Below, piece after piece: positions 286-58,209 of a stretch of 64,000 nt of DNA (position 1 is the stretch's first letter; every line of letters starts with the position of its first letter). The notes under the pieces are model-generated. The model saw only the letters and a list, made by a program, of their open reading frames with translations. It ran no database searches and was not told where the DNA came from. The position numbers and the translations under genes were made by a program. This stretch comes from a virus: positions 1 to 64,000 of the IMG/VR virus record IMGVR_UViG_3300045988_149268; one strand, given 5' to 3'.

Positions 286-1164
286 TTGATTAATTTAAAT
301 TTACCTGATTTTGATCTTGGTTATAATGCTTATCGCACGTTATTTGAATTAACTGCTCAACATCCAGAAATTGTATATGATGATACTAAAATCGCTGCAA
401 TTTTTGGTATGTTTAATGGAGCGATTTGGAATGGTGGCGGCATTGTTCTAGGCGGATCTGTTACAAAACAATATGTTGAAGAGATTGTGCATTTTTATAA
501 CGATATTATGCGAGTGCCGATTCGTTTTACTTGCACTAATTCTTTAATTACTGAAAAGCAATGTTATGATACATATTGCAATATGATTCTTAAAACTGCC
601 CATAATGGCAAAAATGAAGTTTTGACCTCTTCACCAATTTTGGAGCAATATCTGCGCACAGAATATCCACATTATAAATTCTGTAAGAGCATTATTACAA
701 CCGCCAATGAGCCATATGATACAAGTGGTAAATATGATTTGGTAGTTATGAAACGTCGTATGAATAATAATTGGGAATTTTTAGATACTATTCCTATTGA
801 AATGCGAGGCAAAATTGAATTTTTATGTTGTGATCCTTGTCCGGATAATTGCCCACGTATTTATAGCCACTATAGGGATTTTGCAAGAGCACAAGTTGAA
901 TTTGATGTAGGTTCATCTAATGTTAAATGCTCAATGATGGATGTAAAAGGTCAATTTACTGATTATTATACAAAACATTTGGAAACTTATATTTCACGAG
1001 AAATGATTGAAAAAGAATATGCACCTCGTGGTTTTACTCAATTTAAATTAAGTGGAAGAACAAATATTGGAGCAATTATTATGGATATTGCTAATTATTA
1101 CATTAAACCAGAATATAAGGATGATATGATCCAATATTTATATGGCTCCTATATAGGAGGTTAA
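286..1164 (+). CDS. Hypothetical protein (Cys-rich, CCDPCPDNCP motif); TTG start
   Basis: 292-aa ORF with strong RBS aaggaggaaaagg upstream; no TAG codons; no recognisable family. Confidence 0.6.
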   Translation: MINLNLPDFDLGYNAYRTLFELTAQHPEIVYDDTKIAAIFGMFNGAIWNGGGIVLGGSVTKQYVEEIVHFYNDIMRVPIRFTCTNSLITEKQCYDTYCNMILKTAHNGKNEVLTSSPILEQYLRTEYPHYKFCKSIITTANEPYDTSGKYDLVVMKRRMNNNWEFLDTIPIEMRGKIEFLCCDPCPDNCPRIYSHYRDFARAQVEFDVGSSNVKCSMMDVKGQFTDYYTKHLETYISREMIEKEYAPRGFTQFKLSGRTNIGAIIMDIANYYIKPEYKDDMIQYLYGSYIGG

Positions 1165-1165
1165 T

Positions 1166-3379
1166 ATGTTTGATATTGTAATTCCAACTTATAATACCCC
1201 AGAAAATTTGTTATTAGATTGTTTAAATGGCATTTAGCAATAGCAAATTGATCATTCACTAATTAATGTTATTTTAATTAATGATGCTGGTCAAGCAATT
1301 GATATAGATAGTATTAAATCTTTATATGATTTTCAAATATCATATTATATCAACGATACGAATGTCGGCCCAGGTATTTGTCGGCAATTTGGAGTAGAAA
1401 AAGCATCAGATTGGATTGTTTTTTGCGATGCTGATGACATCTTATTAAAAGACGCTTTATCACAATATTTTAATTTTATTCAACAGGATAAAGACATTGA
1501 CATTATTTATCCCGCACAGATTAATTTGTTGGATGAATTTTTAGCGCAATAGATTGTGTCAAATAATTTTCCAGATGGTTTATATGCAGTATGTGTCAAT
1601 AAGCATTTTTTAACACAACATCCTGATATTAAATTTTTGCCGTATTATTATCACGAAGATGGCTTATTTACTATGTAGTGTGCAATTCATAATCCTCGTG
1701 CAGTCGGCGCAAATGGAGAAATTATAGCTCATAGAATTGGCAGATATGAGTCTTTAGCAACTTTTAAAAACACAGCTATTTATGATTTAAGCTTGATGGC
1801 AAGCGCATATGCGATTTATCATCATTTTTTAAATGAGCAAGAACAACTATACCTATATAATGATTAGAGAAATTTTTATATAGAAATATTATTAAGTCGT
1901 TTGACATTTTCTGATGCTCTTGAGAATAAAGATAATCAAACATTTGTAAATCTACTGTCATTTTTTATCACTTGTATTAAAAGAGCTTTACCTTATGAAA
2001 TAGTAGAATATTTTATACAAAATTTTAGTGAAACGATTTTTAATTGTAATATTTATGATTACTATCCATCTAATTTTTTAAATGATTTAACGCAATTCTG
2101 TGAAAATGACAATCAGACAATTTTTAATTATTTATCTCAAATGGGCAAATTGGCGTTTGAGACATATGTTAAATTAAATAATATTGCATTGCCAGAATGT
2201 ACAATCACTATTCCAACTTATAATAACTCTAAACAATAGATTGAAAGAATTTTAAATCATTTTAGTAGATAGAGTGCCGCAAAGTATATTAATATTTTAA
2301 TTATAGATGATGGCTCAACAAATAATGAACTATCTCTTGTTGAATACCCAGAAAATTTGAAGATATAGATAATTAGATCTAAATTTAATAAGGGTGTTGG
2401 ACGAGCCAGACAAATTGGGCTTGATAATGTTCATACCCCATATGTAATGTTTTTTGATATGGACGATGATATTATTTATGACGACATCGTTTGGCATTAT
2501 CTTGCATTTTTCATGGCACACCCTGATTATACCGGTATTCGAGGAAAAGAAATTTGGAGAAATCCAGCGCAAAATGATAAATTACAAGAAGATGTCTCAT
2601 TAAATAGTTTACACGGACTGTGCTGTAAAGTAGACACATTAAGAGAATATGATATTAAATTTAAACCTTGGCAATATGCTGAAGATGGAATGTTTACTTG
2701 CACAATACTTTTATATGGCTTAAAAATAAAATCTTTAGAAAAAGAGACATTTTATTTCAGAGATCGTGGTTATTTAACTGAAAATATTGAAAGCACTGTT
2801 GGTAATTTAAATTTTGCCACAGATTCTTGTTTGATTATAAGAGCGCTTTTGGAAATTATGGATAGTGCAAAAGCGAATCTTGAAATTATAGAAAATTGTA
2901 AAGATTGTCTTATTAATGAAGTTTAGAATTTAAGTAATTCTATGTTTCCATATGGAAAAAATGAAGAACTTGATACGATAAAAACACAATTTTTACGCGA
3001 TCACGTAATAGATCCAAGAATTAAAAATATTTTATCTATTTATTATTTATATGAGGCAGTTCGTGTTATACCCTTTGCCATATTAAAAGCTATAAAACAA
3101 TAGCCTTGGGCTTGGGAAAATTCATCTTTAATAATGGCTATAGATAATTTACTCGCTAATGATGACTGTTATTATATAAAAATGGCATCAGGCACCGAGA
3201 ACAAAATTTATACAATAGATGGATTAGAAAAAGAAACAATAGAATGGTTTCATGACTATTTGGACTATTGTAAAAATTTACAATAGGAATGTAAAGATTT
3301 AATAATAAATCTTCCACCTTAGGCTATAAAACATTAGCCTTGGAACTATAAAACATATCAATGGAAAGGAAGAAACTAA
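1166..3379 (+). CDS. Tandem family-2 glycosyltransferase (two GT2 domains plus C-terminal extension), read through ~13 in-frame TAG codons
   Basis: Frame is open from ATG 1166 to TAA 3377 except for TAG; two copies of the GT2 signature (IPTYN...IND/DDGS...DADD and ITIPTYNN...IIDDGST...FDMDDD); track fragments 1901-2239 and 2447-2926 are in this same frame. Confidence 0.65.
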
Positions 3380-3690: not shown

Positions 3691-3717
3691 TAACCACCAA
3701 TGGTGGTTATTATTTTA
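3691..3717 (+). terminator. Rho-independent terminator
   Basis: ATAACCACC-AAT-GGTGGTTAT hairpin followed by T-rich tract. Confidence 0.65.
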
Positions 3718-3732
3718 ATTGGAGGAATTAAA

Positions 3733-4791
3733 ATGTCTACTTTAAAGATAGGGCCTGGAGCAGCATCTTTAGGCAATGGTGACAGAAAGGCCGGAGTGCG
3801 ATGTAATTTTAATGCCAGTGGAACCGCAGTTGGTTATGATACAAATACTTATAATTATTCGTTATTTTCTGTAACAATGAATATTTCTCTTTGTAAATAT
3901 TATTCTGTATACGGATATTTTGACGTATATAATCAAGCGGGCACCTTAATTGGAAGAACTAAATAGTGGAATGTGGCAGAAAATGCTGGTTCTGTTAAAG
4001 CCTCCGGTGCATCAGCTATATCTTGTACTTTTACTTTAATTAATACCAATCTCGCTGCAGCAATGTAGACGAGTAGCTTTTATTTAATTATTCGTAGAAG
4101 TGGCGGAAGTGGCAACTGCTGTAATATTAGATCTGGTTGTACTGGCACGCTTACTATTAATTATACAAGAACTACTAAAAATAGCCCCCCAGTTCATCCT
4201 ACTACAATTTATTATCCGGCCACAAACGGTGTAAAGACATATAATACAAAACCATACTTTTCATCTTTAACTGGCACAGACCCCGATGGGAATAATGTGC
4301 AATTAGGTTATGCAATTTATGATACAACTACAAAAACATGGCCACAAGCGACAAAATGGTTAGATGGATGGCATAGTGGAGGAACAAGAGTATATTGGTC
4401 ACATTAGACTGCGCTAACCACTGGTCATTATTATTAGCTTTATACATATGCAAGAGATACAAGTTATACCGTTGGAACGGGCAGTTCTGGTCTTCGTGGT
4501 TTTTATGTTTTAGATAATGGGCTATCTATTGGCAGTATAATTGATGACGCGACGATAGATACGTTATAGACAAAAATTAATAATGTTCAAGCATATTACG
4601 GACAAACAAAAAAAATTTTTACTGTTTGTGATAATGGCACAAAATTAAACCGTTCACAAATAGTTGAATTAGAAAATGCAATTGAAGGAACCCCATATAT
4701 TGCTACTACTGCCTATACATCTCCTGCGGTAGGAGACAAAGCGATTGCCAGTCAATTATCTTCCATTAACACAATTATTGGAAATGCTTGA
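3733..4791 (+). CDS. Hypothetical Thr/Gly-rich protein (possible surface or structural protein), 5 in-frame TAG
   Basis: ATG 3733 after RBS ggaggaattaaa; frame open to TGA 4789 apart from 5 TAG; track piece 3700-3966 is its N-terminus. Confidence 0.6.
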
Positions 4792-5323: not shown

Positions 5324-5399
5324 GCGGGATTAGCGCAGTTGGTAGCGCAACTGGCTTACATCCAGTCGGTCGGCAGTTCGAGTCTGTCATTCCGCACCA
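5324..5399 (+). tRNA. tRNA-Val (anticodon UAC), CCA encoded
   Basis: Acceptor GCGGGAT/ATTCCGC, D-arm GCGC..GCGC, anticodon stem ACTGG/CCAGT with loop CTTACAT, T-arm GGCAG TTCGAGT CTGTC, ACCA end. Confidence 0.75.
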
Positions 5400-18852: not shown

Positions 18853-19262
18853 TTAATTTGAATCGTGAATACCCAGATTTAAGAAGTTATTTCAATTCAA
18901 GAGATAAGAAATGGTTAAAAAAGTGCGCTAGTCAGCGGGCAAGGCTTGGACTTGCGTATTGTGATACTTGGAATTTTGATAGTTTTTTACTTGGTATTAT
19001 TATTCGTGGTTTGCGTCAATTAGCTGATAATAGCCATGGTTACCCTGGATTCGTTCCATTTGATACTTTTGAAAAATGGCAGATTTATCTTCTTGACTTG
19101 GCAGATAAATTTGAATTAGCAAGTCGTTATATTTATGATGAAGATGACTATTGGGAAACGCATAATCAACAAGAAACCGCCGTTCGACATGAACAAGGTA
19201 TGAAACTTTTAAAAGAAGCGTTTGTTGAATTGGCAGAAAATCTTCCGGCTATGTGGGACTAA
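18849..19262 (+). CDS. Hypothetical protein (GTG start overlapping upstream stop)
   Basis: 137-aa ORF, translationally coupled. Confidence 0.45.
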   Translation: MINLNREYPDLRSYFNSRDKKWLKKCASQRARLGLAYCDTWNFDSFLLGIIIRGLRQLADNSHGYPGFVPFDTFEKWQIYLLDLADKFELASRYIYDEDDYWETHNQQETAVRHEQGMKLLKEAFVELAENLPAMWD

Positions 19263-19275
19263 GGAGGTGTTGGGT

Positions 19276-20022
19276 ATGAAGCACTATGTTGCTACTGATA
19301 TACATGGCAATCTTGCTATGTATACAAAAATGATGAGTTGGTTAAATAGCCAAGACGAAGAGTTTGTATTATATTGTTTAGGTGATGCAGCAGATCGCGG
19401 CAAAGATGGCTATAAGATTATGGAGCTTTTGTTAAATGATCCAAAAGTTATTTATCTTAAAGGTAATCATGAAGATTTATTCGTACGTGCTGCGTTTGAA
19501 TATGCCGATTTAGCAATGGAATTGGATTGCACAAAACGAGAGTTAATGAAACGATTTAACAGTGATTTGGCTTCGCTTACAGATTATGGCGTAGATATGC
19601 GATTGCATTATTGTAATGGCGGAAAATATACGCTTAAAGCATGGATTGACGCTGGATGTAAAATGGATATTATCTATAAATTAAAAAAACTGCCTCTAAA
19701 AACGTCTTTTGAAAATTTTGATATGTGCCACGCTGGATGTGAAATTTCTGACTGGAACAAAGACAATGAATCTGCGCTTCTTTGGGATAGAACACATTTT
19801 AAAATGCCTTGGAAAACAGATAGAGTTTTGATTCATGGACATACGCCGATAAATCATGTTCCTGTTGATTTTAAAGATTGGCATGTAAAGTCTTATTGTA
19901 ATGGGCAGAAATATGATCTCGATACTATATGTTGGCGCACAAATATCTTGACTATGCTTTGTCTTGAAACGCAAGAAATTATAACTCTTACTAAAGATGA
20001 TACTGTATCATTTGATTTTTAA
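19276..20022 (+). CDS. Lambda-PPase/ApaH-like calcineurin-type metallophosphoesterase (2 of 3)
   Basis: TDIHGN, GDAADRG, GNHE motifs; ATG 19276 after aggaggtgttgggt. Confidence 0.65.
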   Translation: MKHYVATDIHGNLAMYTKMMSWLNSQDEEFVLYCLGDAADRGKDGYKIMELLLNDPKVIYLKGNHEDLFVRAAFEYADLAMELDCTKRELMKRFNSDLASLTDYGVDMRLHYCNGGKYTLKAWIDAGCKMDIIYKLKKLPLKTSFENFDMCHAGCEISDWNKDNESALLWDRTHFKMPWKTDRVLIHGHTPINHVPVDFKDWHVKSYCNGQKYDLDTICWRTNILTMLCLETQEIITLTKDDTVSFDF

Positions 20023-20040
20023 TTAAATTTTTGATATAAT
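20012..20040 (+). promoter_or_regulatory. Sigma-A type promoter TTGATT-N17-TATAAT overlapping upstream stop codon
   Basis: Promoter-family member. Confidence 0.55.
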
Positions 20041-20064
20041 ATATACATAAGATAAAGAAAGGAT

Positions 20065-20361
20065 ATGATTTTTATGGGAAAGAATTGTCGAGATTTTGAA
20101 ACGCATGATTTTTATTGTATTAATTGCGGTAACAAGGGTATCCCGTTGACTCGTCAAGGCAATAAGAAAAAGGGCGAAGGGCATCGTAAAAATATGTATT
20201 GTTATCATTGTAAACATACAGTAAATCATGTGGAATGTCGTTCAATGGATGAAGTCAAACAATTTCAATTTCAATTTGCAAATGGAGATTTTAAAGAAGA
20301 AGCAGAACGAGAGTTGGCTTATGAAAAAGTCGCTCCTCGACTTTCTACCCTATTGAGATAA
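20065..20361 (+). CDS. Zinc-ribbon protein
   Basis: CINCGN...CYHCKH motifs. Confidence 0.5.
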   Translation: MIFMGKNCRDFETHDFYCINCGNKGIPLTRQGNKKKGEGHRKNMYCYHCKHTVNHVECRSMDEVKQFQFQFANGDFKEEAERELAYEKVAPRLSTLLR

Positions 20362-20371
20362 GGAGTTAAAA

Positions 20372-20857
20372 ATGTCTTCTCATCTTTATGTTATGGTTGG
20401 CGCGCCTGGTAGTGGCAAAAGCACTTGGATTCGTAAGAATATGGGTATCTTATTCAAGGAATCTATGTGCGTTTATGTTAGCCGTGATGCCATTCGTTAT
20501 GGTATGCTTAATGATTCTGATGAATATTTTTCTCATGAAAAGGAAGTTTTTAATGAGATGATTTATCAGATTGTTGATGGGCTTAAAAAGGGATTTAATG
20601 TATTCGCCGATGCTTCTCATTTGAATCACGCGTCTCGCGCCAAGCTCATTAATGCGATTAATCGGCATTATATTGATTATGACGTGCGTTTCGTATTTTT
20701 TGATACTTGTTTAGCAACTTGCATTAAGCGTAATGCTCAGCGAACTGGGCGCGCACTTGTCCCTGAGTCAGTAGTTGGTCAGATGTTTGGTAATATGACA
20801 GTTCCAACCGTAGGTGAATTTCCAAATTGTGTTGGAGTTTGGATGGTGAGAGAATGA
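20372..20857 (+). CDS. pnk: Polynucleotide 5-prime-kinase, T4 Pnk kinase-domain-like (no HAD phosphatase domain)
   Basis: GAPGSGKSTWIRKN, SRDAIRYGM, ADASHLNHASR, RNAQRTGRALVPESVVGQMF all parallel T4 Pnk kinase motifs (recalled from memory, not searched). Confidence 0.6.
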   Translation: MSSHLYVMVGAPGSGKSTWIRKNMGILFKESMCVYVSRDAIRYGMLNDSDEYFSHEKEVFNEMIYQIVDGLKKGFNVFADASHLNHASRAKLINAINRHYIDYDVRFVFFDTCLATCIKRNAQRTGRALVPESVVGQMFGNMTVPTVGEFPNCVGVWMVRE

Positions 20858-21423
20858 TTTATTTTTCTTCAGATTATCATTTTAATCATGATAGAGAGTT
20901 TATTTATCAAGCGCGTGGTTTCCCGAATGTTGAAGAAATGAATGAAGCGATTATCCAGAGACATAATGAAATTGTGAAGCCAGAAGATATTATTTATGTG
21001 CTTGGTGATTTGTGTCTTGGTGGTGGTTCTGAGGAAGCACTTCAAAAAAATAAAGAACTAATTGAACGATTAAATGGCACTCTTTATATCATCCGTGGTA
21101 ATCATGATAGTGATAATAGATGTAAAATGTATCGCTCTTGTAAAAATGTTAAACGAGTTACTGCGGCGATGTATTTAAATTATAACGGTTATCATTTTTA
21201 TCTTAGCCATTACCCTACACTAACTGGTAATCTGGAAAAAGAATCTTTAAAGCAGTGCACGATTAACCTTTATGGGCATACGCATCAAGAAAAAAATTTT
21301 TACCGAGATATACCTTTTATGTATCATGTTGGTGTTGATTCCCACGATTGTTATCCCGTCTCTGTTGATGCTGCTATTGCTGAAATGAAAGCAAAAGTGC
21401 AAGAATGTTTAAACGAACTTTGA
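20854..21423 (+). CDS. Calcineurin-like metallophosphoesterase (3 of 3), overlapping/operonic with Pnk-like kinase; candidate 2-prime,3-prime-phosphate healing enzyme
   Basis: SDYHFNH, GDL, GNHD, GHTH motifs; start ATG 20854 after ggtgagaga. Confidence 0.6.
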   Translation: MIYFSSDYHFNHDREFIYQARGFPNVEEMNEAIIQRHNEIVKPEDIIYVLGDLCLGGGSEEALQKNKELIERLNGTLYIIRGNHDSDNRCKMYRSCKNVKRVTAAMYLNYNGYHFYLSHYPTLTGNLEKESLKQCTINLYGHTHQEKNFYRDIPFMYHVGVDSHDCYPVSVDAAIAEMKAKVQECLNEL

Positions 21424-21446
21424 AAACTATATAGAGGAGAATGTAA

Positions 21447-22901
21447 ATGACGTATATTATGATTGGTATTATTGTGCTCGCTGTTATTGCTGTTGCTACC
21501 CTTGCCAGTATGAGCTATGTTAAGGCTCCGCCGGATCAGGCGTTTCTAATTTCTGGTCCACGCAAGGATATGAAGATTATCTCTGGTCGAGCAGGTTTTA
21601 GAGTGCCATTTGTTGATCGACTTGATAAGTTGTATCTTGGCATTATTGGCGTAGATGTAAAGACCAAGAACTCTGTCCCAACTGCCGAATATATTAATGT
21701 ATATGTTGATGCAAACGTGAATGTTTGCGTTGGGAAGTCTAATACACTTATGGCGCTTGCGGCGAAGAATTTTCTTAATCAAAAGCCAGATGCCATTTCT
21801 CGTAAAGCACAGGAAGTCCTTGAGGGCAATATGCGTGAAATTGTTGGTCAGATGAAGTTGACTGATATGGTAACTGACCGCAAGGCTTTTGCAGAAAAGG
21901 TTATGGAAAATGCCGCGCCTGATATGGAAAAGCTGGGTCTTGAAATTATTTCTTTCAATATTCAGAATTTTAGTGATGAAAATAATGTCATTAATGATCT
22001 GGGTATTGATAATGTTGAGCAAATTAAGAAGAACGCAGCAATTGCTAAGTCTGATGCAGAACGTGATGTCGCTATTCAGAAGGCAGAAAACAAGAGAAAG
22101 GCTAATGAAGCTCAGGTTGAAGCTGCTACTCAGATCGCGCAACAAAATACCGCTCTTGACATTAAAACCGCAGAATTGAAGGCATCGAGTGAAGTTAAGC
22201 GTGCTGCTGCAGATATGTCGTATGATATTCATAAGGCAGATCAGCAAAAGGAACTTGATGTTGCTCGCACCAATGCGCAGATTGCTCAGGCAGAGCGTCA
22301 GGTTGAATTGAAGAATCAGGAAATTGCGCTGAAGGAAAAGGAGCTTGATGCTCTTGTGCGCAAGCAGGCTGACGCAGATTTGTATGCGGCGCAACAGAAG
22401 GCTCAGGCTGATTTGGTGCGTCGTCAGAAGGAGGCCGAAGCTAAGGCTTATGAGGAAATTCAGCGAGCTAAGGCCGCGAAGGAATCTATGGAACTTGAGG
22501 CTGAAGCTCGTAAGATTGTCGCGGAAGCTGATTTGATTACTGCGCAGAAGGCTGCGGAAGGTATTCGTGCTAAGGCGGAAGCTGAAGCAGAAGGAATTCG
22601 TCAGAAGGGCCTCGCCGAAGCTGAAGGTATTGATAAGAAGGCAGAAGCGCAGAAGAAAATGGGCGAAGCATCTGTTTTGGAAATGTATTTCGCTGCGATG
22701 CCGCAGATTGCACAGGCTGTTGCCGCACCTCTTGCTAATGTTGATTCTATTACCATGTATGGTGATGGTAATCAGGCAAAGATGGTGCAGGATATTACGA
22801 CTACGATTAATCAGATTATGAAGGGCGTTAATGACGCTACTGGTGTTGATTTGAATAGCGTTCTTGCTGGTTATATCGGTGGAAGAATGGCTGAAAAGTA
22901 A
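21447..22901 (+). CDS. Flotillin-like SPFH/band-7 domain protein (FloT/YuaG-like); GC-richer
   Basis: N-terminal TM, SPFH core, long Ala/Glu/Lys/Gln-rich coiled-coil (flotillin repeats), C-terminal region. Confidence 0.65.
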   Translation: MTYIMIGIIVLAVIAVATLASMSYVKAPPDQAFLISGPRKDMKIISGRAGFRVPFVDRLDKLYLGIIGVDVKTKNSVPTAEYINVYVDANVNVCVGKSNTLMALAAKNFLNQKPDAISRKAQEVLEGNMREIVGQMKLTDMVTDRKAFAEKVMENAAPDMEKLGLEIISFNIQNFSDENNVINDLGIDNVEQIKKNAAIAKSDAERDVAIQKAENKRKANEAQVEAATQIAQQNTALDIKTAELKASSEVKRAAADMSYDIHKADQQKELDVARTNAQIAQAERQVELKNQEIALKEKELDALVRKQADADLYAAQQKAQADLVRRQKEAEAKAYEEIQRAKAAKESMELEAEARKIVAEADLITAQKAAEGIRAKAEAEAEGIRQKGLAEAEGIDKKAEAQKKMGEASVLEMYFAAMPQIAQAVAAPLANVDSITMYGDGNQAKMVQDITTTINQIMKGVNDATGVDLNSVLAGYIGGRMAEK

Positions 22902-22902
22902 A

Positions 22903-22932
22903 AAGAAGGGCTAATGCCCTTCTTTTTTTATT
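22903..22932 (+). terminator. Rho-independent terminator
   Basis: AAGAAGGGC-TAAT-GCCCTTCTT then TTTTTTA. Confidence 0.75.
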
Positions 22933-23007: not shown

Positions 23008-23036
23008 TTGACTTTCCAAAAATTTTATGATATTAT
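23008..23036 (+). promoter_or_regulatory. Sigma-A type promoter TTGACT-N17-TATTAT
   Basis: Promoter-family member. Confidence 0.55.
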
Positions 23037-23058: not shown

Positions 23059-23445
23059 ATGGCTATTAACGTAAAATTTAGAGTTATGGATAATTATAAT
23101 ATCCTTTGCACATTAACAATAGATGGTAAAAAATATTGTGGTCATGCTGAATGCCATCCTGATGATATTCCTATATTTTCTCAACGACTTGGAGAAAAAT
23201 TGGCATATGATAGAGCGTCAATGAATTATTTACGAGATGAACGTAATAAAATTAATGAACAAATTAAGAGTTTGAAGCACTTATTGAGCATATATAACCA
23301 AAGTCAAAAAACTAATAAAGAAAGCTATGAATATAAGATGCTTCAAAAACAAATTAATACCTATATAAGAGATTCAAAAGAATTATCAAGAGTAATTAAA
23401 GAAATTAAAGAAGAGGATATAAAATATGTTACAGAGCGTGCGTAG
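23059..23445 (+). CDS. Hypothetical coiled-coil protein
   Basis: 128-aa ORF with RBS aaggaggtagcat. Confidence 0.5.
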   Translation: MAINVKFRVMDNYNILCTLTIDGKKYCGHAECHPDDIPIFSQRLGEKLAYDRASMNYLRDERNKINEQIKSLKHLLSIYNQSQKTNKESYEYKMLQKQINTYIRDSKELSRVIKEIKEEDIKYVTERA

Positions 23446-23818
23446 CTACTTAAACGAACGAAAGCCGTTAATGATAACAGCTGATGCTTTTAAAATTTTA
23501 ATAAATAAATATAATTGCACGGATGCGCTATTCCAAAAATATTTTTTATATTTTTTAAATGCAGAATGGGATGCATTGGTGCGAGATGAAAATGGTGTGC
23601 CCTTATCTGCTGATGATAATGCAATAATGCAGTGCCTTAGAAATAATTGGATAAATTGGACTGTAACAGATAAATCTTTACAAGAACTAAACAATAAAGA
23701 CTATCCTGATGAAATATATTTTTGTGGAGCATCTTTAAATATTCTGTATAAAGCCAATTTGGTAATTGGTGATGACATGATTTTTTCTCCTGCCGAGTTA
23801 GCCAGTCAGCTTGTTTGA
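23426..23818 (+). CDS. Hypothetical protein
   Basis: 130-aa ORF overlapping upstream gene end. Confidence 0.45.
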   Translation: MLQSVRSYLNERKPLMITADAFKILINKYNCTDALFQKYFLYFLNAEWDALVRDENGVPLSADDNAIMQCLRNNWINWTVTDKSLQELNNKDYPDEIYFCGASLNILYKANLVIGDDMIFSPAELASQLV

Positions 23819-23855: not shown

Positions 23856-23884
23856 TTGACTTTTTTTGAAAAATATGATATAAT
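23856..23884 (+). promoter_or_regulatory. Sigma-A type promoter TTGACT-N17-TATAAT
   Basis: Promoter-family member. Confidence 0.55.
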
Positions 23885-23915
23885 ATATGTAGAAAATAAA
23901 GAAAGGTGTTGGAGT

Positions 23916-25411
23916 ATGGCTGATTATAGCGTAAAAGATATAAAAACGCTGGAAGGTATTGAAGCTATTCGGCTTAGACCCGGTATGTATATTGGTTCAG
24001 TCGGGCCAGAAGGTGTTCGTCATATTACACTTGAAATTATTTCAAATGCTGTTGATGAGTATCTTAATGGTGCGTGTTCAGAAGTTCATGTCACTATTGA
24101 AAATAATAAAATTCAAGTTTCAGACAATGGTCGTGGTGTTCCTTTTGGTAAAGCAAAAGATGGCTCTGAAACACTTATTAATATTTATACAAAACTTCAT
24201 ACTGGCGCAAAATTTGATAGCGAAGGAAAAACTGGATATAATACATCTGGTGGTATGAATGGCGTAGGCGCAAAGGCAACGAATGCTCTATCATCTTGGT
24301 TCCATGTAACATCTATTCGAGATGGACAAATAGCCAATGCTTGGTTTGAAAAGGGTAAACTTAAAGAGTTTAAGACTGAAAAAACCGATGCGAAAAATAG
24401 TGGAACTACTGTTGAGTTCATTCCTGACGAAGAAATTTTTAAAGAAGGGACAGAACTCGACCCTGTTGCTTTGAAAAAGCAGTTGCAGGAACTTGCTTTT
24501 TTGTCTCCTGGTCTAAAATTTGTTCTATGTATCAATAGCAAGTGTGAAGAAATTTCAAGTAAAAATGGTCTTCTTGATTACTTGGATTACCTTTCCAAAG
24601 ATAAAGATGTATTGACATCAAAATTTTTTGCAGAGGCAAACGAGAATAGAATTGGCGTTAAAGTCGCTTTGCAGTATGTTAATGCGTATAGTGATGTCTA
24701 TAAACTATATACAAATAGCATTCCGAATAGTGGCGGCACGCATTTGACTGGTTTTAGAACCGCTTTAACACAATCTATTAACGTTTATGCCAGAAATAAA
24801 GGTTTTCTAAAAGAAAAGGATGAAAATTTTTCAGGAGAAGATTTAAAAGAGGGTCTAATTCTTGTCCTTTCTTTAACGATGCCAGATCCTGTTTTCTCTG
24901 GACAAACTAAAGATACTTTATCTTCAAGCGAGGGCCGCACCATTGTGCAGCGTTTGTGTGCTGCGAGTCTTGAGACATGGCTTAGCACGAATGAAAAAGA
25001 TGCAAAAGCAATTATTAATAAGGCACTCTTGGCACGAAAGGCAAGAGAAAATGCGAGAAAAGCAAAAGAAACAGTAAGAAATACTTCTAAGGCTTCTCGT
25101 ATCACTCTGCCTGGCAAATTGGCAGATTGTTCAAGCAAAAAGAGGCTTACGGATTGTGAGATTTTTATCGTTGAAGGCGACAGCGCCGCAGGTTCAGCTA
25201 AAGAAGCACGTGATCGTAATACTCAAGCAATTCTGCCAGTCCGAGGTAAAATTCTTAATGTATTAAAAGCGGATTTGCATAAAGCGATGAGCAATGCCGA
25301 AATTCAAAGTATGATTACCGCTTTTGGCCTTGAGATTAAAGATGGTAAAATTGTTTTGAACGAAGATAAATTACGCTATGGTAAAATTATTATTATGGCT
25401 GATGCAGACGT
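23916..25411 (+). CDS. Type IIA topoisomerase ATPase/TOPRIM subunit (GyrB/T4 gp39-like), exon 1
   Basis: GHKL ATPase N-terminus, TOPRIM EGDSAAGSAK, ends in MADADV (conserved DADVDGSHI interrupted); exon ends with T as required for group I 5-prime splice site. Confidence 0.75.
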
Positions 25412-26460
25412 CAACTAAAAATCGGCGTATGAAAAACTTTTCGCATATCAAGCGGGTCAGAATCTATTAATTATATGTAGAGGGTTCTCATATAATAATA
25501 GAAGATGGCTAACGGGAAACCCTAAACTGAAAAGCAAGGGAACCCCGTGGGAAACAAATATTAATCCATCTTCTAAGGAGATGGGAAAATGATTGGAATT
25601 TATAAAATTACCAATAAAATATCAGGAAAATCTTATATTGGTTAGTCTAATGATATTGAAAGAAGATTTAAAGAGCATTAGACAATAGGCAATAAAAGTA
25701 GAATTCCTGTTGATATCGCTATTCAAAAATATGGAAAAGAATCATTCACATATGAAATAATTGAACTTTGTTAGATTGAACAATTAAATGAAAAAGAAGA
25801 ATACTGGATTAAATTTTATGATTCATATAACAATGGTTATAATTGTAATCCTGGCGGAAATCAATCTTCAATAGGAGAAAACAATGGACGAGCGAAATTA
25901 ACTATTGAAGATGTAGAAATTATTCGGCAAGCCTACGCCACGCATAAAAAACAAAGGGAAATATATGAAAAATTTAAAGATAAAATTTCATTTAATTATT
26001 TTCAAAATGTTTGGGCGGGCAAAAGCTGGTCGCACATAATGCCAGAAGTTTTTACAGAAGAAAATAAACATTATTATATTTATGAAAATAGTAAAAACGG
26101 CAATGGTTTTAATTCTTAGTTTTCAGATGAAGAAATTGTTTATATTAGACAAAGATATGTGAATGAAAGTGCAAAACAGATATATAACGACTATAAAAAT
26201 AGAATTAAATTTCAAAGTTTTTAGGCAATATTATGGGGTCGTTCATATTCTGATTTGCCATTATACAAGAAAAAAGAAAAGCGATGGATTAATATTTGAA
26301 CCTGTATCGACTATCTCCTAAGCCTTATGGGCAGGAGAGTAGGGCTACTATTGATACGTAGTCTGGTTTTAGGAAACGAAGCCAGTTAAATGCCGAAATG
26401 GTTTCCTCTCTTTATGAGAGTAAAAGATAGTCAGCGCTCATAGAAATATGAGAATAAGTG
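25412..26460 (+). mobile_element. Group I intron interrupting topoisomerase subunit gene, carrying GIY-YIG homing endonuclease
   Basis: Exon1 stops right after DADV; downstream frame resumes with DGSHIRILFFTFIWKFCPELIEKGYIY; intron ends with G; internal free-standing ORF with own RBS. Confidence 0.7.
25589..26299 (+). CDS. GIY-YIG homing endonuclease (intron-encoded; 3 in-frame TAG)
   Basis: GIYKITNKISGKSYIG-Q-SNDIERRFKEH motif; RBS ctaaggagatggg. Confidence 0.7.
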
Positions 26461-26860
26461 TGATGGAAGTCATATTAGAATTTTGTTTTTTACCTTTATT
26501 TGGAAGTTTTGTCCAGAGCTAATTGAAAAAGGATATATTTATGCCGCGGTCCCGCCTCTATATCGAGTTATTAAAGGCACTAAATCTATCTACATTAAAG
26601 ATGATAATGCTCTTGCCGAATACCGTAAGAAACATAGTGGAGAAAAATATGAATTGCGTCGTTTCAAAGGATTGGGCGAGCAAAGTGTAGAGGAACTTGA
26701 AGAAAGCACAATGTCTCCTGCTACAAGAACTCTTAAACAAATTACTATGGAAGATGCCATCGCAGCGAGTCAAGTTTTTAACAACCTAATGGGTGAAACT
26801 GTAACGTTGCGTAAACAGTTTATTGAAAAAAATGCTTGGAGGGCAAACGTAGATGTCTGA
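26461..26860 (+). CDS. Type IIA topoisomerase subunit (GyrB-like), exon 2
   Basis: DGSHI..PELIEKGYIYAAVPPLY..FKGLGEQSVEELEESTM matches GyrB C-terminal region. Confidence 0.7.
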
Positions 26861-27862: not shown

Positions 27863-28343
27863 TATTTATACAGATGGTAGCGCTACCAAAGAGCAATCGG
27901 GCTTTGGTTTTGTTGTCATAGACATAAATCAGACTATTATTCATATGGTTTCACAAGTTCTTCCTCCCTCTATTACAAATCAACAAGCTGAACTGCTGGG
28001 AGCAATTGCTGGATACCATTGGATAAAAAATAATATAAAAAATGTTTTTTAGATTAATATATATTCTGATAGTGCGTATTTAGTAAACTGCTATATGCAA
28101 CAATGGTATAAAAAATGGATTAATAACGGCTGGATTAATTCAAAAGGTCAAGATGTTGCCAATAAACCACTATGGTTAGAATTATTGCCTGCATTTAATG
28201 ATGAAACTGTTAATTTTTTAAAAATTGCTGGACATTCAGGAAAAGTATATAATGAATTGGCGGATGCCTTGGCAACACATCGACTTGACAAAGTAAAAAA
28301 AATATATTATAATATTGAAAGAGAAAAGGAGTTAAATGAATGA
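27840..28343 (+). CDS. rnh: Ribonuclease H (1 in-frame TAG)
   Basis: YTDGS...TNQQAELLGAI...IYSDSAYLVNC...KIAGHSGKVYNELADALA catalytic DEDD pattern; track pieces 27840-28052 and 28095-28343 share frame. Confidence 0.75.
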
Positions 28344-28573
28344 AAGAAAACATTATTCAAACACCAATAGTAGAAGAAACCGAACAATCATTTTTGGACT
28401 ATTCTCTTTCTGTAATTACTGATAGAGCTATTCCATCTGCGGAAGATGGATTTAAGCCTGTTGTGAGACGTATTCTTTATGATATGTCTGATAATGGTTA
28501 TGCAAGTAACAAACAATATGTTAAATGCGCTTCTCCTGTTGGCGATACAATGGGTCGTTTTCATCCTCACGGT
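28340..28573 (+). CDS. Type IIA topoisomerase DNA-cleavage subunit (GyrA/T4 gp52-like), exon 1
   Basis: N-terminus SFLDYSLSVITDRAIPSAEDGFKPVVRRILY..GRFHPHG(D); interrupted inside conserved HPHGD-SSIYDAL. Confidence 0.75.
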
Positions 28574-29485
28574 AAAAACTAACTATTGCCGTGGCTAAAT
28601 CGCGGAAAAAATCTGGAAGGCTGAGATGCTAATCAGAGGTGAAGGCTATACAAAGTATGGCCAGCCGCAACGCATAGAGAGTGAAAAGATATAATCTCTC
28701 CACGAGGCCGCGATAATTTGGTCAGAATTTTTTAAAGTATCTATTTGATAATTTCATACTTAATGGGGATGAAAAATCACCCACATTAAGGAGGAATTAT
28801 AATGATTGAATATAATCGACACGTTTTTGATACAATAAACACAAATGAAAAAGCATACTGGTTAGGATTTATCGTCGCTGATGGATATTTAAATGATAAT
28901 AAAAATATGTTAAGAATAAAACTCGGCGATAAAGATAAACGTCATTTAGAAAAATTCATTAAATTTTTAGATGGCGATGACTCAATGCTAAAAAAAGAAA
29001 TCAACAGTATAACTGGGAATGTTTAGTGGTATGTATCAACTTACGCGCCACAAATTCATGAGGCTTTAAAACAATTAAAAGTAGAGCAAGCAAAGAGTGG
29101 GAAAGAACATATCCCTCCTATCAGCTCCTGTTATTATAGAGATTTTATCAGAGGGTTGTGGGATGGAGATGGATTTATTAGAGAGAATTTAAGTGGTATT
29201 GGATTAGTTGGCTCTTATGAGTGTTTAGCTTTTGTTTAGGAAGTTTTTGAAACGGAGTTAAAAATTCAACCACTAAAAATTTATTCTCATTGCAATACGT
29301 ATAAAATTGAATATCGCTCTACAAAAAAATCAATTCCATTAATTATGAATTATTTATATCAAGATAAGGATGTAGCACTTGATAGAAAAATGGAATTAGC
29401 TGACCGAATTAAAAAGATATGCTAAACTTACATAAATAAAAATGTAAGAATTATAGGATAAAAAGCCTATAAGGTAATAATATTG
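28574..29485 (+). mobile_element. Group I intron in gyrA-like gene carrying LAGLIDADG homing endonuclease
   Basis: Exon1 ends HPHG (T at junction), exon2 begins DSSIYGALVGIAQ; intron ends in G. Confidence 0.7.
28802..29425 (+). CDS. LAGLIDADG homing endonuclease (intron-encoded; 2 in-frame TAG)
   Basis: Two LAGLIDADG motifs: LGFIVADGYL and LWDGDGFI; RBS aaggaggaattataatg. Confidence 0.7.
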
Positions 29486-31627
29486 GATAGTAGTATTTAT
29501 GGCGCTTTGGTTGGTATCGCTCAGCCATGGACAATGCGGTATCCATTGATTGATTTTCATGGCAATTGTGGTAGTCGTGATGGTGATGGGCCTGCTGCAT
29601 ATCGTTATACAGAATGTCGATTGGCTCCAATCGCAGAAGCGACTTTGGAAGATATTAAAAAGAATACGGTAGATTGGCAAACTACATATGCAGAAACAGA
29701 AAAAGAACCTGTTTATCTCCCGGGGCGGTTTCCGAATCTTTTGTGCAATGGAACAACGGGTATTGCTGTTGCAATGGCTTGTTCTTTTGCTCCACATAAT
29801 CTAAATGAAGTAATTGACGCAGCAATTTTTTATATGAATAATAGAGATGCTACCGCAGCAGATTTATGTGATTATGTTAAAGGTCCAGATTTTCCCACTG
29901 GCGGTGTAGTTATTAACAAAAATGAGCTAAAAACCGCATATACTACTGGTAGAGGAAAAGCTCGTATCCGCGGTGAATATATTGTAGAAACTGGAAGAAC
30001 ACATGATACTCTTGTATTTACAAGCATTCCATACAAAGTTTCAAAAGAAACCTTGGCAGAAGAAATCGACAAACTCTGTGAAACAAAAGAGATAGAAGGA
30101 ATTGCAGAAATTCGCGATGAAAGTAATAAAAAAGGCGTCCGATTTGTAATTGAAATTCAAAAAGGATATAGCGCCGAGGTTGTAGCGAATAAGTTATATA
30201 AATTAACTGATTTGGAAACTACTTATAGTTTTAATCAAGTTGCTCTTGTAAATAAAGCTCCAAAATTAATGACACTAAAAGACTTAATTCAAGAATATGT
30301 AAAACATCAAGAAGATGTTTTCAATAGACGTTGTAAATTTGAACTTGAAAAATTGAATACACGTATTCATATTCTACAGGGTCTTGTAAAAGCATCTGAA
30401 AATATTGATAAAATTATTCAAGTTATTAAACGTTCTGAAGACACGGCAAGAGCAAGAAATAATCTAATGGATGTATATCTTTTTACTGAGGCGCAGGCGC
30501 AAGCTATTTTGGATATGAAGTTAAGTAAATTAGCTCATATTGAAAAAGTAGCTTTGGAAAGAGAACTTGAAGATAAACAATCCACAGCGGAAAAACTACT
30601 TGTTATTTTAAACGATCCCGCTGTTGCACAAAAAACTTTGTGTGAAGAGTTGCTTAGTTTTAAATTAAGATTCGGCGATGCTCGTAGAACTAAAATCGAA
30701 CAAATTAATATTACACCAGAAGAAAAAGAAGTAATTGAAATTCAATCAGAAGATTGCGTAGTTTTGGTTACTGAAACTGGAAATATTAAGAGAATGACAA
30801 CGAGTGCATTTAAAGCACAAAAAAGAAATGGGCAAGGTGTAAAAACACAAAACGATATTACACATAGCATAATTTCTACCAATACTATTGATGCGTTAAT
30901 GGTATTTACAAATTATGGTAGAGTTTATAAAGTTTCAGTAAATGATATTCCCGCAGGTAATAATGTTTTTAGAGGCGTGCCAATTAATACTCTTGTTTCA
31001 ATGGACGCCAAAGAAAAATTCATTGCAATTGCTTCTGTTGAGCGTGGGACAAAAGAAGGGCAATATGTATGGTTCGCCACGAAAAATGGTCTTATTAAGA
31101 AAACCGCATTGTCTGAATATGCCGGAGTTAAACGTAAAACAGGTATTACAGCAACGAATATAAAAGATGGCGACGAACTTGTGAGTGTTTTTGTCGCTCC
31201 TGATTGTCAGCTTATGTTCTTTACTGAAAATGGAATGAGTCTTCGTATCAATGGTAAAGACATTGGCGCAACTGCGAGAACAAGCATCGGTGTTAAAGGT
31301 ATCGCATTAAAAGATGATGACAAAACCGCGGTTGTTATTCCTTGTTTTAATGAAACTGAAGTTATTTTGGCTTTTGATAATGGAACAATAAAACGAGTGC
31401 CGATTAAAGAATTTACAATTCAGAATCGAGCTGGTAAAGGTTTAATCTGCGCTAAAAATTGTAAAATTATTGATGCTGTTGCTATTAATGCTACGGATAA
31501 AATATTTGTTGCTGGGACAATATCTAATATTTGTCTTGCAGTATCAGAAATTACTTTGGGCTCTCGTGCTTCAACTGGAATTAAAGCAATTAAAAATGGT
31601 GACATTATCGCCATTACAAAGGTATGA
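29486..31627 (+). CDS. Type IIA topoisomerase GyrA-like subunit, exon 2
   Basis: DSSIY...RYPLIDFHGNCGSRDGDGPAAYRYTECRL... GyrA breakage-reunion domain and beta-pinwheel-like C-terminus. Confidence 0.75.
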   Translation, partial: DSSIYGALVGIAQPWTMRYPLIDFHGNCGSRDGDGPAAYRYTECRLAPIAEATLEDIKKNTVDWQTTYAETEKEPVYLPGRFPNLLCNGTTGIAVAMACSFAPHNLNEVIDAAIFYMNNRDATAADLCDYVKGPDFPTGGVVINKNELKTAYTTGRGKARIRGEYIVETGRTHDTLVFTSIPYKVSKETLAEEIDKLCETKEIEGIAEIRDESNKKGVRFVIEIQKGYSAEVVANKLYKLTDLETTYSFNQVALVNKAPKLMTLKDLIQEYVKHQEDVFNRRCKFELEKLNTRIHILQGLVKASENIDKIIQVIKRSEDTARARNNLMDVYLFTEAQAQAILDMKLSKLAHIEKVALERELEDKQSTAEKLLVILNDPAVAQKTLCEELLSFKLRFGDARRTKIEQINITPEEKEVIEIQSEDCVVLVTETGNIKRMTTSAFKAQKRNGQGVKTQNDITHSIISTNTIDALMVFTNYGRVYKVSVNDIPAGNNVFRGVPINTLVSMDAKEKFIAIASVERGTKEGQYVWFATKNGLIKKTALSEYAGVKRKTGITATNIKDGDELVSVFVAPDCQLMFFTENGMSLRINGKDIGATARTSIGVKGIALKDDDKTAVVIPCFNETEVILAFDNGTIKRVPIKEFTIQNRAGKGLICAKNCKIIDAVAINATDKIFVAGTISNICLAVSEITLGSRASTGIKAIKNGDIIAITKV

Positions 31628-33598: not shown

Positions 33599-33609
33599 AA
33601 GAGGTGCCT

Positions 33610-34593
33610 ATGCCAGCTATAATTTTAGGAATTATTTGCGGCTTACTCGTTTGTTGTAACTGCTTTTTAATTTTTCGGATTGGGAAAAATATAAAAGAAG
33701 AACAAAAAACTAAAGAAGCCGTAAATTATTAGAATAATAACTTACAGTAGTTAATAACTAATTGTAAGGATTTAGAAGAAAAACAAGATGATTTGTATGA
33801 ATATAAAAAATATTTGGATTCATAGGTGTCCGCGGCCAAAGAAGAATATAATATGCTTCAATAGTATTGTGAACACGCAAATCAAGAATATCATACAAAA
33901 ATATCGTTGATGGAATCTTCACAAAAGACAAAAGAATAGGAATTAATTCAAAAATATAATATTTTATGTGAAGAACAAGAAGAGCGTTTAGGAGAAGTCT
34001 CACGCGACTTTCTAACAGAATGGCGTAAAATAAGTGAAAAACTTTTAAATGATAAAAACGCTTTGGCGGCACAAGTTGAAGAGGAACGCGCCACTTTAAA
34101 TGCTGCTATTGATGCTGCAAAAAGGGCATAGCTTGAACAAATTAAAAAAGATTATTATAAAATTATGCTCGATTCAGTCGCGTAGAAAGATATTGAGCAT
34201 TTGCGCTCTATTGAACCATTATTAACTAGACCAGAGTCATTAAATAAAATTATTTGGAAAGTTTATTATGAAAAACCAGTCTCTGATATGATTGGTAGAG
34301 TTGTCGGCGACACAACTAAAACGGGTATATATAAAATAACGCATTGCGCGAGTGAAATGGCTTATGTTGGTTAGGCTGTTGATATTGCTTCACGTTGGCG
34401 TCAACATATAAAGCGAGGACTTGGTGCAGAAACGCCAACACAAAATAAATTATATCCAGCAATGAAAAAGTTTGGGCCAGAAGCATTTATGTTTGAAATT
34501 CTTGAAGAATGTGATAGAAGTAAATTAGATGAACGTGAAGATTATTGGCAAGATTTTTACCGAGTTAAAGAATTTGGATATAGTATAAAATAA
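33610..34593 (+). CDS. Membrane-anchored coiled-coil protein with C-terminal GIY-YIG nuclease domain (8 in-frame TAG)
   Basis: N-terminal TM IILGIICGLLVCC, long coiled coil, C-terminal GIYKITHCASEMAYVG-Q-AVDIASRWRQH GIY-YIG motif; frame open from ATG 33610 to TAA 34591 except TAG; not in ORF track because of TAGs. Confidence 0.55.
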
Positions 34594-55999: not shown

Positions 56000-56500
56000 A
56001 TGCCATTTGAACAACAAGTTTTTGATTATTTTCTTAAATGGTTCATTCCTTTTTTATGTGCAGGATTATTTTCTGCAATTTTTATACCTCTACGGAACAA
56101 ACTTAAAAAAGGACAAGAAGTGGCAGATCAAACTGAATGGGACAATCACGCTTAGGCAATTCAATAGCAAATAGATAATTTAAAAAATGAAACACAATTA
56201 TTATCTAAGCGAATTGACTTTTTACAAAAAGATGTAATCGAAAAAATTGATGAAAATACAAAAGGCATACGAACGGCGATGCTGCAATAGCAATTAAGAG
56301 GCTTAATCATTGATGGAAAGTCTTATTTAAGACGTGGTAAGATTACCATTGATCAATTAACTGATTATAATGAACGATATTCTACTTATAAAACACTTGG
56401 CGGTAATGGTCATGCTGATATTTGGGTATCAAAAATTCGTGAATTAAATATTGTACAATCGCTTAATGACAATGAAGAACTTGAAGGCTCAAATGAATAA
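56000..56500 (+). CDS. Membrane + coiled-coil protein (3 in-frame TAG)
   Basis: ATG 56000 after gaagggagga; N-terminal TM FLKWFIPFLCAGLFSAIFI; frame open to TAA 56498. Confidence 0.45.
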
Positions 56501-57470: not shown

Positions 57471-57487
57471 TACGTTAGCCTCCTCTC

Positions 57488-58177: not shown

Positions 58178-58209
58178 TTTGATTTCCCCTTTGCTTTATT
58201 TTAGATTAT

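Follow-up and report, generated by a model that had tools for sequence, protein, structure and literature searches.

What flotillins and other SPFH proteins do in bacteria remains a matter of debate. Bacterial SPFH operons typically include an NfeD partner, and the classical link of SPFH proteins to phage biology runs through the stability of lambda CII and the cage that HflK/HflC forms with FtsH. SPFH proteins encoded by phages themselves were known before, from N4-like and RaK2-like phages, from PHROG 200 and from two flotillin annotations in GenBank, and their role has been called unclear (PMC13239085, PMC7760394). Here we analyse a flotillin gene carried by a large, uncultured phage, in a stretch of 64,000 nucleotides (positions 1 to 64,000 of IMG/VR virus record IMGVR_UViG_3300045988_149268; hereafter the window). 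We did not find described the occurrence of phage flotillins on the scale of more than 100 contigs, their GyrB-like conservation, their fixed slot by a polynucleotide-kinase-like gene pair, their either/or exchange with a short SPFH protein, or the TAG-recoded setting. By analogy with solved SPFH assemblies, we consider it fairly probable that the protein would act as an early-expressed membrane scaffold, reorganising or stabilising the host membrane for the phage.

An initial reading of the sequence alone (the sequence-only reading) had taken the 484-residue product for a full-length phage flotillin of FloT/YuaG architecture, and had named a coiled coil lacking an SPFH core as the finding that would overturn this. 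The profile searches it called for place both characteristic domains above curated thresholds. Band_7 (PF01145) scores 67.5 bits against a cutoff of 23.6 (E 2e-18, residues 50-205), showing that an SPFH core is present, and the C-terminal Flot domain (PF15975) scores 36.4 bits against a cutoff of 27 (E 6.6e-9, residues 366-446). The NCBIfam FloT model NF058507 is matched over profile positions 31-475 of 477, at 266.6 bits and short of the FloT equivalog cutoff of 700. By these profile scores the window protein is a flotillin but no FloT ortholog; the description as FloT-like is apt for the architecture and fails at the ortholog level, the nearest cellular proteins being Clostridia-type flotillins at 50-52% identity. 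Among sequences in the Protein Data Bank (PDB), phmmer matches are flotillins only, with human flotillin-1 and -2 (9BQ2, 9L3G) at E 7e-48 and about 28% identity. Residues 27-472 align collinearly with residues 5-419 of the 422-residue human flotillin-1 chain 9BQ2_B, and a second aligned stretch pairs residues 364-472 with flotillin-1 residues 307-419.

The remaining parts of a flotillin are also found. The sole strongly hydrophobic segment, residues 1-25, reaches a 19-residue Kyte-Doolittle mean of up to 2.7 and is modelled by AlphaFold2 as a helix at residues 2-22, with membrane insertion predicted. Residues 201-400 are free of Pro, contain Gly only after position 372, and consist of 47-65% Ala, Glu, Lys and Gln. 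Tandem Repeats Finder detects no real DNA-level tandem repeat in the gene, only a compositional periodicity of EA type; of the “coiled-coil repeats” reported at first, the long EA-rich helical region therefore stands and true DNA repeats do not. The AlphaFold2 model, a monomer built from 30 family sequences, comprises an alpha/beta SPFH core (residues 67-177) and very long helices at 190-245 and 259-426. Its top Foldseek matches are the flotillin complexes 9L3G and 9BQ2 (E about 1e-17), followed at lower rank by stomatin, prohibitin, HflK/C (7WI3, 9CZ2), QmcA-YbbJ and major vault protein; against the flotillin-2 and stomatin SPFH domains 1WIN and 4FVJ the target-normalised TM-score is 0.76-0.80. 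By all features tested, the window protein belongs to the flotillin family.

The flotillin gene lies directly after a Metallophos_2 phosphoesterase gene in the window family and, within the same module, in 31 of the 80 best IMG/VR flotillin loci. A reverse survey, anchored on Metallophos_2 and covering 4 kb on each side in 80 IMG/VR loci, found flotillin directly downstream in 47 and no flotillin in 28, with 5 loci too short to tell. In loci without flotillin the slot is often filled by a short, Band_7-only protein of 236-309 aa (E 2e-27, 8e-25 and 2e-16). The gene for this short SPFH protein lies at most 4 kb away in 12 of the 28 flotillin-less loci and 3 of the 5 too-short ones, as against none of the 47 flotillin loci, and the two types never occur together (0/80). 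Collapsed at 90% nucleotide identity, the loci form 40 clusters, of which 16 have flotillin only, 5 the short SPFH gene only, 16 neither and 1 both types; the last two consist of one with flotillin loci and a too-short locus, and one too short to tell.

The mixed cluster, with 5 flotillin and 6 short-SPFH loci, permits the exchange to be read at the level of nucleotides. At loci L135 and L137 identity is 93% as far as about 130 nt beyond Metallophos_2 and 97.5% from the start of the following gene; between these points 1608 bp with flotillin (L135, 4682-6289) are replaced by 1048 bp with the short SPFH gene (L137, 4682-5729), without similarity between the two. The short SPFH protein occupies the slot also in L103, L108, L138-L140 and L145. 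Judged by these gene contents and alignments, the thing retained at the slot is an SPFH-type protein and not flotillin as such, and these phages apparently require their own membrane scaffold.

Flotillin is also strongly conserved in its phage family. More than 100 protein clusters lie at 71-96% identity to the window flotillin, many on contigs of 160-175 kb. Three relatives were compared for synteny, L012 (174 kb, human), L014 (160 kb, giant tortoise) and L021 (a 48-kb contig), and all three keep the gene order of RNA ligase, phosphoesterase, zinc finger, AAA_33, Metallophos_2, flotillin, small open reading frames (ORFs), GyrB, RNase H, GyrA and DNA ligase. Identity to L012 and L014 is 72% and 78% for flotillin, 78% and 79% for GyrB, 59% and 61% for GyrA, 60% and 61% for RNA ligase, 40% and 45% for AAA_33, and 40% and 37% for Metallophos_2. 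Relative to L021, whose flotillin is 90% identical in amino acids, the ratio of nonsynonymous to synonymous substitution rates (dN/dS) of flotillin comes to about 0.03, lower than for any other of the eight genes that gave a usable value (Metallophos_2 0.06, GyrB 0.07, RNA ligase 0.08, the Metallophos gene at 13183 0.14, AAA_33 0.16, gene 18849 0.23); the ratios are approximate because dS is saturated, at about 1.3-2.7, and too saturated for an estimate in the zinc-finger gene. The value for the serine hydroxymethyltransferase (SHMT) gene was disregarded, since it conflicts with the 86% identity of that protein and indicates a codon-register error. Across 14 flotillin sequences at 42-76% identity, 47 alignment columns are invariant. 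On these sequence comparisons flotillin is as conserved as GyrB and under strong purifying selection. Across the IMG/VR loci flotillin identity does not track GyrB identity; replacement of flotillin is not inferred from this mismatch, given two gyrase lineages and mosaicism.

The same comparisons bear on the gene's first description as a cassette. Because its position, its sequence and its raised GC content at third codon positions (GC3, see below) are kept in orthologs whose synonymous sites are saturated, the flotillin gene is, by the alignments, not a recent insert in this phage family. The word cassette does suit the wider group, in which flotillin and the short SPFH gene are cleanly swapped at an exchangeable slot.

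At least 108 IMG/VR viral contigs encode a flotillin relative according to a profile-guided scan, and the best 80 of these relatives fall into 25 clusters at 70% identity, most of them being on contigs 80-200 kb long. Outside the window family the nearest relatives, matching over their full length, are the cellular-type flotillins of a Velocimicrobium sp. metagenome-assembled genome (MAG; JBGUEO010000001, L008) and of contig MT836322 (L019, beside lgt), and sequence similarity makes the Clostridia-type cellular flotillins the likely source lineage. In a neighbour-joining tree (Kimura distances, 100 bootstraps, taxon labels from two MAGs only) the window family is monophyletic in 100/100 bootstraps. 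An exhaustive search of representative proteins and a cluster look-up yielded only metagenome proteins from short contigs, which could not serve as labels. A second phage group, from IMG/VR contigs of 113-150 kb and at 44-45% identity, clusters with a Eubacterium MAG protein, again in 100/100 bootstraps, and is never united with the window family in a clade of these two alone. The flotillin of MT835492 (121 kb) branches elsewhere, and identity to the window protein falls to 22-26% in the flotillins of Vibrio phage KIT04, phage csAssE-Sib and a 635-kb megaphage. These separate branches indicate repeated acquisition by large phages, by the tree at least three times and probably six or more. Four unannotated GenBank records of 1.5-20 kb with Enterococcus or Listeria phage labels (OR846627, PQ520226, OR847422, OR849508) also hold flotillin genes, whose products show about 30% identity to the window protein; as possible host DNA, these records were not counted.

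The cellular type of L008 and L019 could be taken to mean that the gene is a host-derived passenger, or serves lysogenic conversion without a role in the lytic cycle, and the possession of a terminator of its own would agree with that. We regard this as very improbable, as the gene has no promoter of its own and follows the upstream gene after 23 nt, keeps its position in the early/replication region in relatives from human and tortoise gut, is conserved like GyrB (dN/dS about 0.03), and belongs to a family that is monophyletic in 100/100 bootstraps.

The single slot is polymorphic for the presence, absence and type of the SPFH gene, down to a clean swap within one cluster (5 flotillin and 6 short-SPFH loci), and such a pattern typically marks accessory loci of counter-defence. 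The SPFH gene might accordingly be an arms-race gene, whose product counters a membrane-acting host defence, such as an abortive-infection effector that forms pores or depolarises, or keeps superinfecting phages out, the types being exchanged because hosts and competitors differ. Repeated acquisition by large phages would fit this, as would the neighbouring genes of RNA-repair type (AAA_33 kinase, phosphoesterases, RNA ligase, RlaP, DUF2828-vWA), which are classical counter-defence functions. Set against it, selection within each allele is purifying and not diversifying, with the low dN/dS given above; PADLOC-DB 2.0 yields no defence family for flotillin (E up to 0.01) or the short SPFH protein, and only sub-threshold noise for the neighbours; and a literature search on phage-encoded flotillin or SPFH proteins in anti-phage contexts found no functional study, nor any study tying SPFH proteins to phage defence or counter-defence. 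We therefore hold an arms-race role to be unlikely, if worth keeping in mind.

The scaffold role that we prefer supposes early expression, and two lines of sequence evidence point that way. The first is the arrangement of the genes (Table 1). Flotillin lacks a promoter of its own and begins 23 nt after Metallophos_2, the genes of the unit upstream of it are separated by gaps of 10-43 nt or overlap, and relatives have a zinc-finger homolog at the matching position and likewise keep AAA_33 immediately upstream. In our best reading these four genes (zinc finger, AAA_33, Metallophos_2, flotillin) would form one unit of about 2.9 kb, transcribed from a host-type promoter, with flotillin as the last and largest product. 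The promoter-like form TTGATT-17-TG-TATAAT recurs in intergenic positions at 12373-12401 and 18355-18383, and related sites are found at 10753-10781, 14021-14049 and 23008-23036, often just after a terminator hairpin; the last of these starts the next unit, whose first gene has the ribosome-binding site AAGGAGG 5' of its ATG at 23059. The recurrence of this motif suggests many short early units transcribed by the host polymerase.

The second line is the genetic code. In the window 65 in-frame TAG codons occur in 12 genes, every gene ends in TAA or TGA, re-calling genes with TAG as sense joins many fragments into long ORFs, and homologs have Gln far more often than any other residue at the positions of TAG (74 of 275). 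In-frame TAG, exclusive use of TAA and TGA as stops, and Gln opposite TAG together identify, from sequence, a TAG-recoded phage of the code-15 type. Since TAG is sense, standard-code ORF lists fragment many genes of the window. A suppressor tRNA(CUA) was not found within the 64-kb window, nor was any other Rfam family apart from the two tRNAs of Table 1. In published recoded phages, recoded stops accumulate in structural and lysis genes and not in replication genes (bioRxiv 10.1101/2021.08.26.457843). The window follows this pattern, with TAG in lysis and structural genes, none in replication genes, and TAG never a terminator; it is a well-delimited example of TAG recoding, in which the early/late split can be read gene by gene. 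Flotillin stands with the replication and RNA-repair-type genes in being TAG-free: none of its 31 Gln codons is TAG (P about 3e-6 if TAG were used as often as in the recoded genes). Being TAG-free, it should be readable by the unmodified host machinery, in the standard code, before the switch to the late code, and would thus group with early and middle genes.

This placement bears on a further possibility, that flotillin is a virion-associated or late structural protein. An SPFH-domain protein is indeed among the proteins identified by mass spectrometry in Erwinia jumbo phages (PMC7760394). The window flotillin, encoded TAG-free in the replication/early region of a phage whose late genes for lysis and structure have as many as 8 TAG each, and equipped with a membrane anchor, is a most improbable counterpart.

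Returning to the membrane scaffold, the course of events may be pictured as follows. Flotillin would be made early by the host translation machinery, from the end of the unit that encodes the kinase and phosphoesterase, and would insert at the inner face of the host cytoplasmic membrane. Through its helices it could then oligomerise into an SPFH-type ring or cage, as do flotillin-1/2, HflK/C, stomatin and prohibitin, the solved structures of which are closed oligomeric membrane cages and which are all among the fold matches. Such a cage might fence off or stabilise a patch of membrane for the phage's benefit during infection. Candidate clients, drawn from established knowledge of the SPFH family, are the FtsH protease, membrane-bound replication or RNA-processing machinery, and membrane integrity and fluidity themselves until programmed lysis. 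The sequence-only reading had put forward, as possible roles, a remodelling of host membrane domains for replication or lysis timing, or interference with SPFH-type defence. Expression timing, oligomerisation and membrane effect are the elements of our scheme that we infer, whereas identity, architecture, gene context, conservation, distribution and the swap at the slot are shown by the sequences.

Several observations weigh against it. The early timing rests on promoter and terminator consensus and on TAG absence. The monomer model is mediocre (pLDDT 64.5, pTM 0.31). An NfeD gene, as sought by Pfam match, is absent from the flotillin-flanking genes of the window and of L006, L008, L009, L010, L011, L016 and L019. 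The 16 of 40 clusters without an SPFH gene within 4 kb of Metallophos_2 also count against it, so that the SPFH function is dispensable in some relatives or encoded elsewhere. Many of the IMG/VR contigs share one dataset and hence are not independent, and the raised GC3 of the flotillin gene is not accounted for.

One client would be common to long and short SPFH proteins and could thereby explain their interchangeability at the slot, namely FtsH. HflK/C encloses this protease, and Bacillus flotillins have been reported to interact with it. A phage cage acting in the manner of HflK/C might enclose or titrate host FtsH, so protecting labile phage proteins or redirecting host regulation of sporulation or stress; the SpoIID domain of the endolysin fits a spore-forming host lineage, and the HflK/C-FtsH structures 7WI3 and 9CZ2 are among the fold matches. 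Sequence and fold are nevertheless closest to flotillins and not to HflK/C, and we consider control of FtsH doubtful, with a low probability. It is tempting to speculate, more loosely, that the SPFH protein is no general membrane helper but the membrane arm of the zinc-finger/AAA_33/Metallophos_2 unit, an exchangeable, conflict-driven module that holds RNA-repair or nucleotide-processing enzymes at a fenced patch of membrane or neutralises a membrane-acting host immune effector. Flotillin and the short SPFH protein would then be alternative alleles kept by an arms race; this we think rather unlikely. A membrane scaffold of the kind outlined above remains the reading we favour.

Table 1. Coordinates of the flotillin gene, its domains, its predicted transcription unit and other features of the window.
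Feature	Position	Strand	Basis or remark
Flotillin coding sequence, 484 aa	21447..22901	+	ATG start, TAA stop, zero in-frame TAG
Ribosome-binding site GAGGAG	21434..21439	+	7 nt 5' of flotillin ATG; read from sequence
N-terminal hydrophobic membrane anchor (predicted), residues 1-25	21447..21521	+	Kyte-Doolittle, AlphaFold2
SPFH / Band_7 core, residues 50-205	21594..22061	+	Pfam, Foldseek
Long alpha-helical Ala/Glu/Lys/Gln-rich region, residues 190-426	22014..22724	+	Composition, AlphaFold2, flotillin-1 alignment; corresponds to flotillin wall-forming helices
Flot (flotillin C-terminal) domain, residues 366-446	22542..22784	+	Pfam PF15975, flotillin-1 alignment
Intrinsic terminator: 12-bp stem, TAAT loop, T-run	22900..22930	+	Folding; overlaps flotillin stop codon
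Promoter-like TTGATT-17-TATAAT with TG (extended -10)	20012..20040	+	Consensus scan, 10/12 matches; likely start of unit
Small zinc-finger protein, first gene of predicted unit	20065..20361	+	PHROG 1257, E 1.5e-11
AAA_33 P-loop kinase (polynucleotide-kinase-like)	20372..20857	+	Pfam AAA_33, E 2.7e-19
Metallophos_2 phosphoesterase, 189 aa by source gene call	20854..21423	+	Pfam Metallophos_2, E 9.2e-10; longest ORF starts 20827
Promoter-like TTGACT-17-TATTAT with TG	23008..23036	+	Starts next unit, gene 23059-23484
tRNA-Thr(CGU)	39-114
tRNA-Val(UAC)	5324-5399
TAG-bearing gene	1142-3379		14 TAG
TAG-bearing gene	3700-4791		5 TAG
TAG-bearing gene	16168-17028		6 TAG
TAG-bearing GIY-YIG endonuclease gene	25589-26299		5 TAG
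TAG-bearing gene	33604-34593		8 TAG
TAG-bearing gene	58364-58768	-	5 TAG
Holin	58864-59265	-	Late block
PG_binding_1 + Peptidase_C39_2 protein	59279-60232	-	3 TAG
SpoIID + PG_binding_1 protein, 565 aa	60653-62350	-	6 TAG

The sequence-only reading had also credited the gene with its own terminator, a high GC content and atypical codon usage, all of which were borne out. The terminator hairpin, AAAAAGAAGGGC-TAAT-GCCCTTCTTTTT at 22900-22927 followed by a T-run, has a perfect 12-bp stem and folds with a dG of -17.6 kcal/mol (z = -5.1 against shuffles); a simple consensus terminator scan misses it, a false negative, and it was found by reading and folding the sequence. A GC-rich hairpin with a T-run likewise lies 3' of the flotillin gene in L012, L014, L006, L016 and Vibrio phage KIT04. 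The gene has a GC content of 0.441, the window one of about 0.34. From amino-acid composition (16.7% Ala) a value of 0.394 would be expected, and the remaining excess is synonymous, with an observed GC3 of 0.38 against 0.257 expected and with 25 CAG and 6 CAA codons for Gln in a genome that prefers CAA. GC3 is raised in orthologs as well (0.54 in L012, 0.49 in L014, 0.47 in L006), where the excess spans the block from DUF2828 to flotillin. Recent horizontal transfer was considered as a source of the high GC and rejected, the excess being found in L012, L014 and L006 orthologs with saturated synonymous sites. As the excess is common to the orthologs and the closest cellular flotillin (L008) has a GC3 equal to its genomic background, 0.256, incomplete amelioration after a recent transfer is excluded. 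Within the window, GC3 values of 0.31-0.47 are also found for the DUF2828-vWA gene (10844-12340), the RNA ligase gene (14781-16094) and a gene at 57488-58177 on the - strand, flotillin (21447-22901) being the fourth of this subset; replication genes have 0.17-0.25, and the same contrast is seen in L012, L014 and L006 despite other overall GC.

The genes of RNA-repair type lie at 10844-16094 and 19222-21423 of the window and comprise a vWA-containing DUF2828/DUF7788 protein, an RlaP-like nucleotidyltransferase, three calcineurin-type phosphoesterases, an RNA ligase (PHA02142 OB fold and RNA_ligase) and the AAA_33 kinase; relatives add Thg1-like and PIN-PhoH genes. The DUF2828-vWA gene has its own promoter-like site at 10753 and a terminator at 12344-12374, and its product has no match at E up to 1 among PDB sequences, where a link to Ro60/TROVE was sought. 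Flotillin adjoins genes of this type even in rearranged phage groups and in the T5-like Vibrio phage KIT04: DUF2828-vWA is immediately upstream and Thg1 downstream in L006 and L072, Metallophos_2 is immediately downstream in L060, and RlaP, DUF2828 and Thg1 are within 10 kb in L068, L071 and L075.

The phage origin of the locus, also part of the sequence-only reading, is supported by the holin and endolysin-type genes, homing endonucleases in gyrB and gyrA, two tRNAs, TAG recoding, and a scaffold of 165,752 bp that encodes an identical flotillin and comes from a human gut metagenome of Peru. Flotillin is part of an extended + strand array of genes for replication and nucleotide metabolism (GyrB, GyrA, Pol III alpha, DnaB, primase, RecJ, Dda-like helicase, NrdD, SHMT, PhoH and the two tRNAs), and 3' of this array a convergent - strand block carries the holin and the endolysin-type genes with SpoIID, PG_binding_1 and Peptidase_C39_2. 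Strand and GC skew switch at about 56.5 kb, the late - strand block covering 56500-64000, and beyond the window (L020) lie large TAG-rich ORFs without Pfam match, which are probably structural. Pol III alpha is 38-39% identical to that of gut phage Phass-1, Enterococcus phages and SPbeta-like phages, and megablast of positions 15-35 kb of the window against GenBank phages gave no match, which leaves the phage without a near relative among them. Gene content and similarity point to a large phage that infects Gram-positive bacteria, probably Clostridia. Membership of the “Agate” clade of Borges et al., with genomes of 154 +/- 27 kb, would agree with the length of 165.7 kb and with the sources sampled (Matses people of Peru; giant tortoise).

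Some further genes of the array may be mentioned. GyrB (23856-25418) is split from its C-terminal part (26390-26860) by the GIY-YIG endonuclease gene, and an N-terminal piece of GyrA (28340-28582) from GyrA (29534-31627) by a LAGLIDADG-like ORF (28802-29425), whereas the gyrase genes of L012 and L014 are uninterrupted. The SHMT gene (17180-18328, Pfam E 1e-158) is bracketed by terminator-like hairpins at 17138-17163 and 18334-18359. L012 has formate-tetrahydrofolate ligase near flotillin instead of SHMT, and these phages thus carry auxiliary genes of one-carbon/folate metabolism.

Widespread large gut phages with a strongly conserved flotillin, probably expressed early and swapped at a fixed slot, constitute a natural data set on which the debated role of SPFH proteins becomes a testable question. 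The discovery of a client, whether FtsH, replication or RNA-repair machinery or a defence effector, would reveal the use of an SPFH cage in a minimal system under strong selection.

Among known systems, the closest in architecture are FloT/YuaG of Bacillus subtilis and eukaryotic flotillin-1/2 (9BQ2, 9L3G), which have the same order of parts and align from end to end. Unlike them, the window protein is phage-encoded, scores below the FloT cutoff, has no adjacent NfeD gene, and is predicted to be co-transcribed with a kinase and a phosphoesterase and not with membrane-protein partners. The Clostridia-type cellular flotillins (L008, L019) are its closest relatives outside the phage family; they differ in having genes for HD hydrolase, GH3 and nitroreductase, or lgt, as neighbours, and in a GC3 at background level. 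HflK/HflC-FtsH of E. coli shares the SPFH superfamily and appears among the fold matches, but HflK and HflC are a periplasm-facing heterodimeric pair and far more distant from the window flotillin in sequence and fold score.

Among phages, Vibrio phage KIT04 (LC487410, T5-like) and csAssE-Sib (OR575929) also carry SPFH proteins of flotillin length, annotated “flotillin family protein”, and KIT04 has an RNA ligase and a Metallophos_2 homolog 1.4-3 kb downstream of the gene, which is followed by a terminator. At 22-26% identity, however, both branch deeply apart from the window family, indicating independent acquisitions. The short phage SPFH/Band_7 proteins (PHROG 200 “lipoprotein”, N4-like and RaK2-like phages; L137, L108, L103) share the SPFH core and membrane anchor with the window flotillin and differ from it in their length of 236-309 aa, without the long helical region and the Flot domain; in the relatives L137, L108 and L103 they occupy the very same slot after Metallophos_2.

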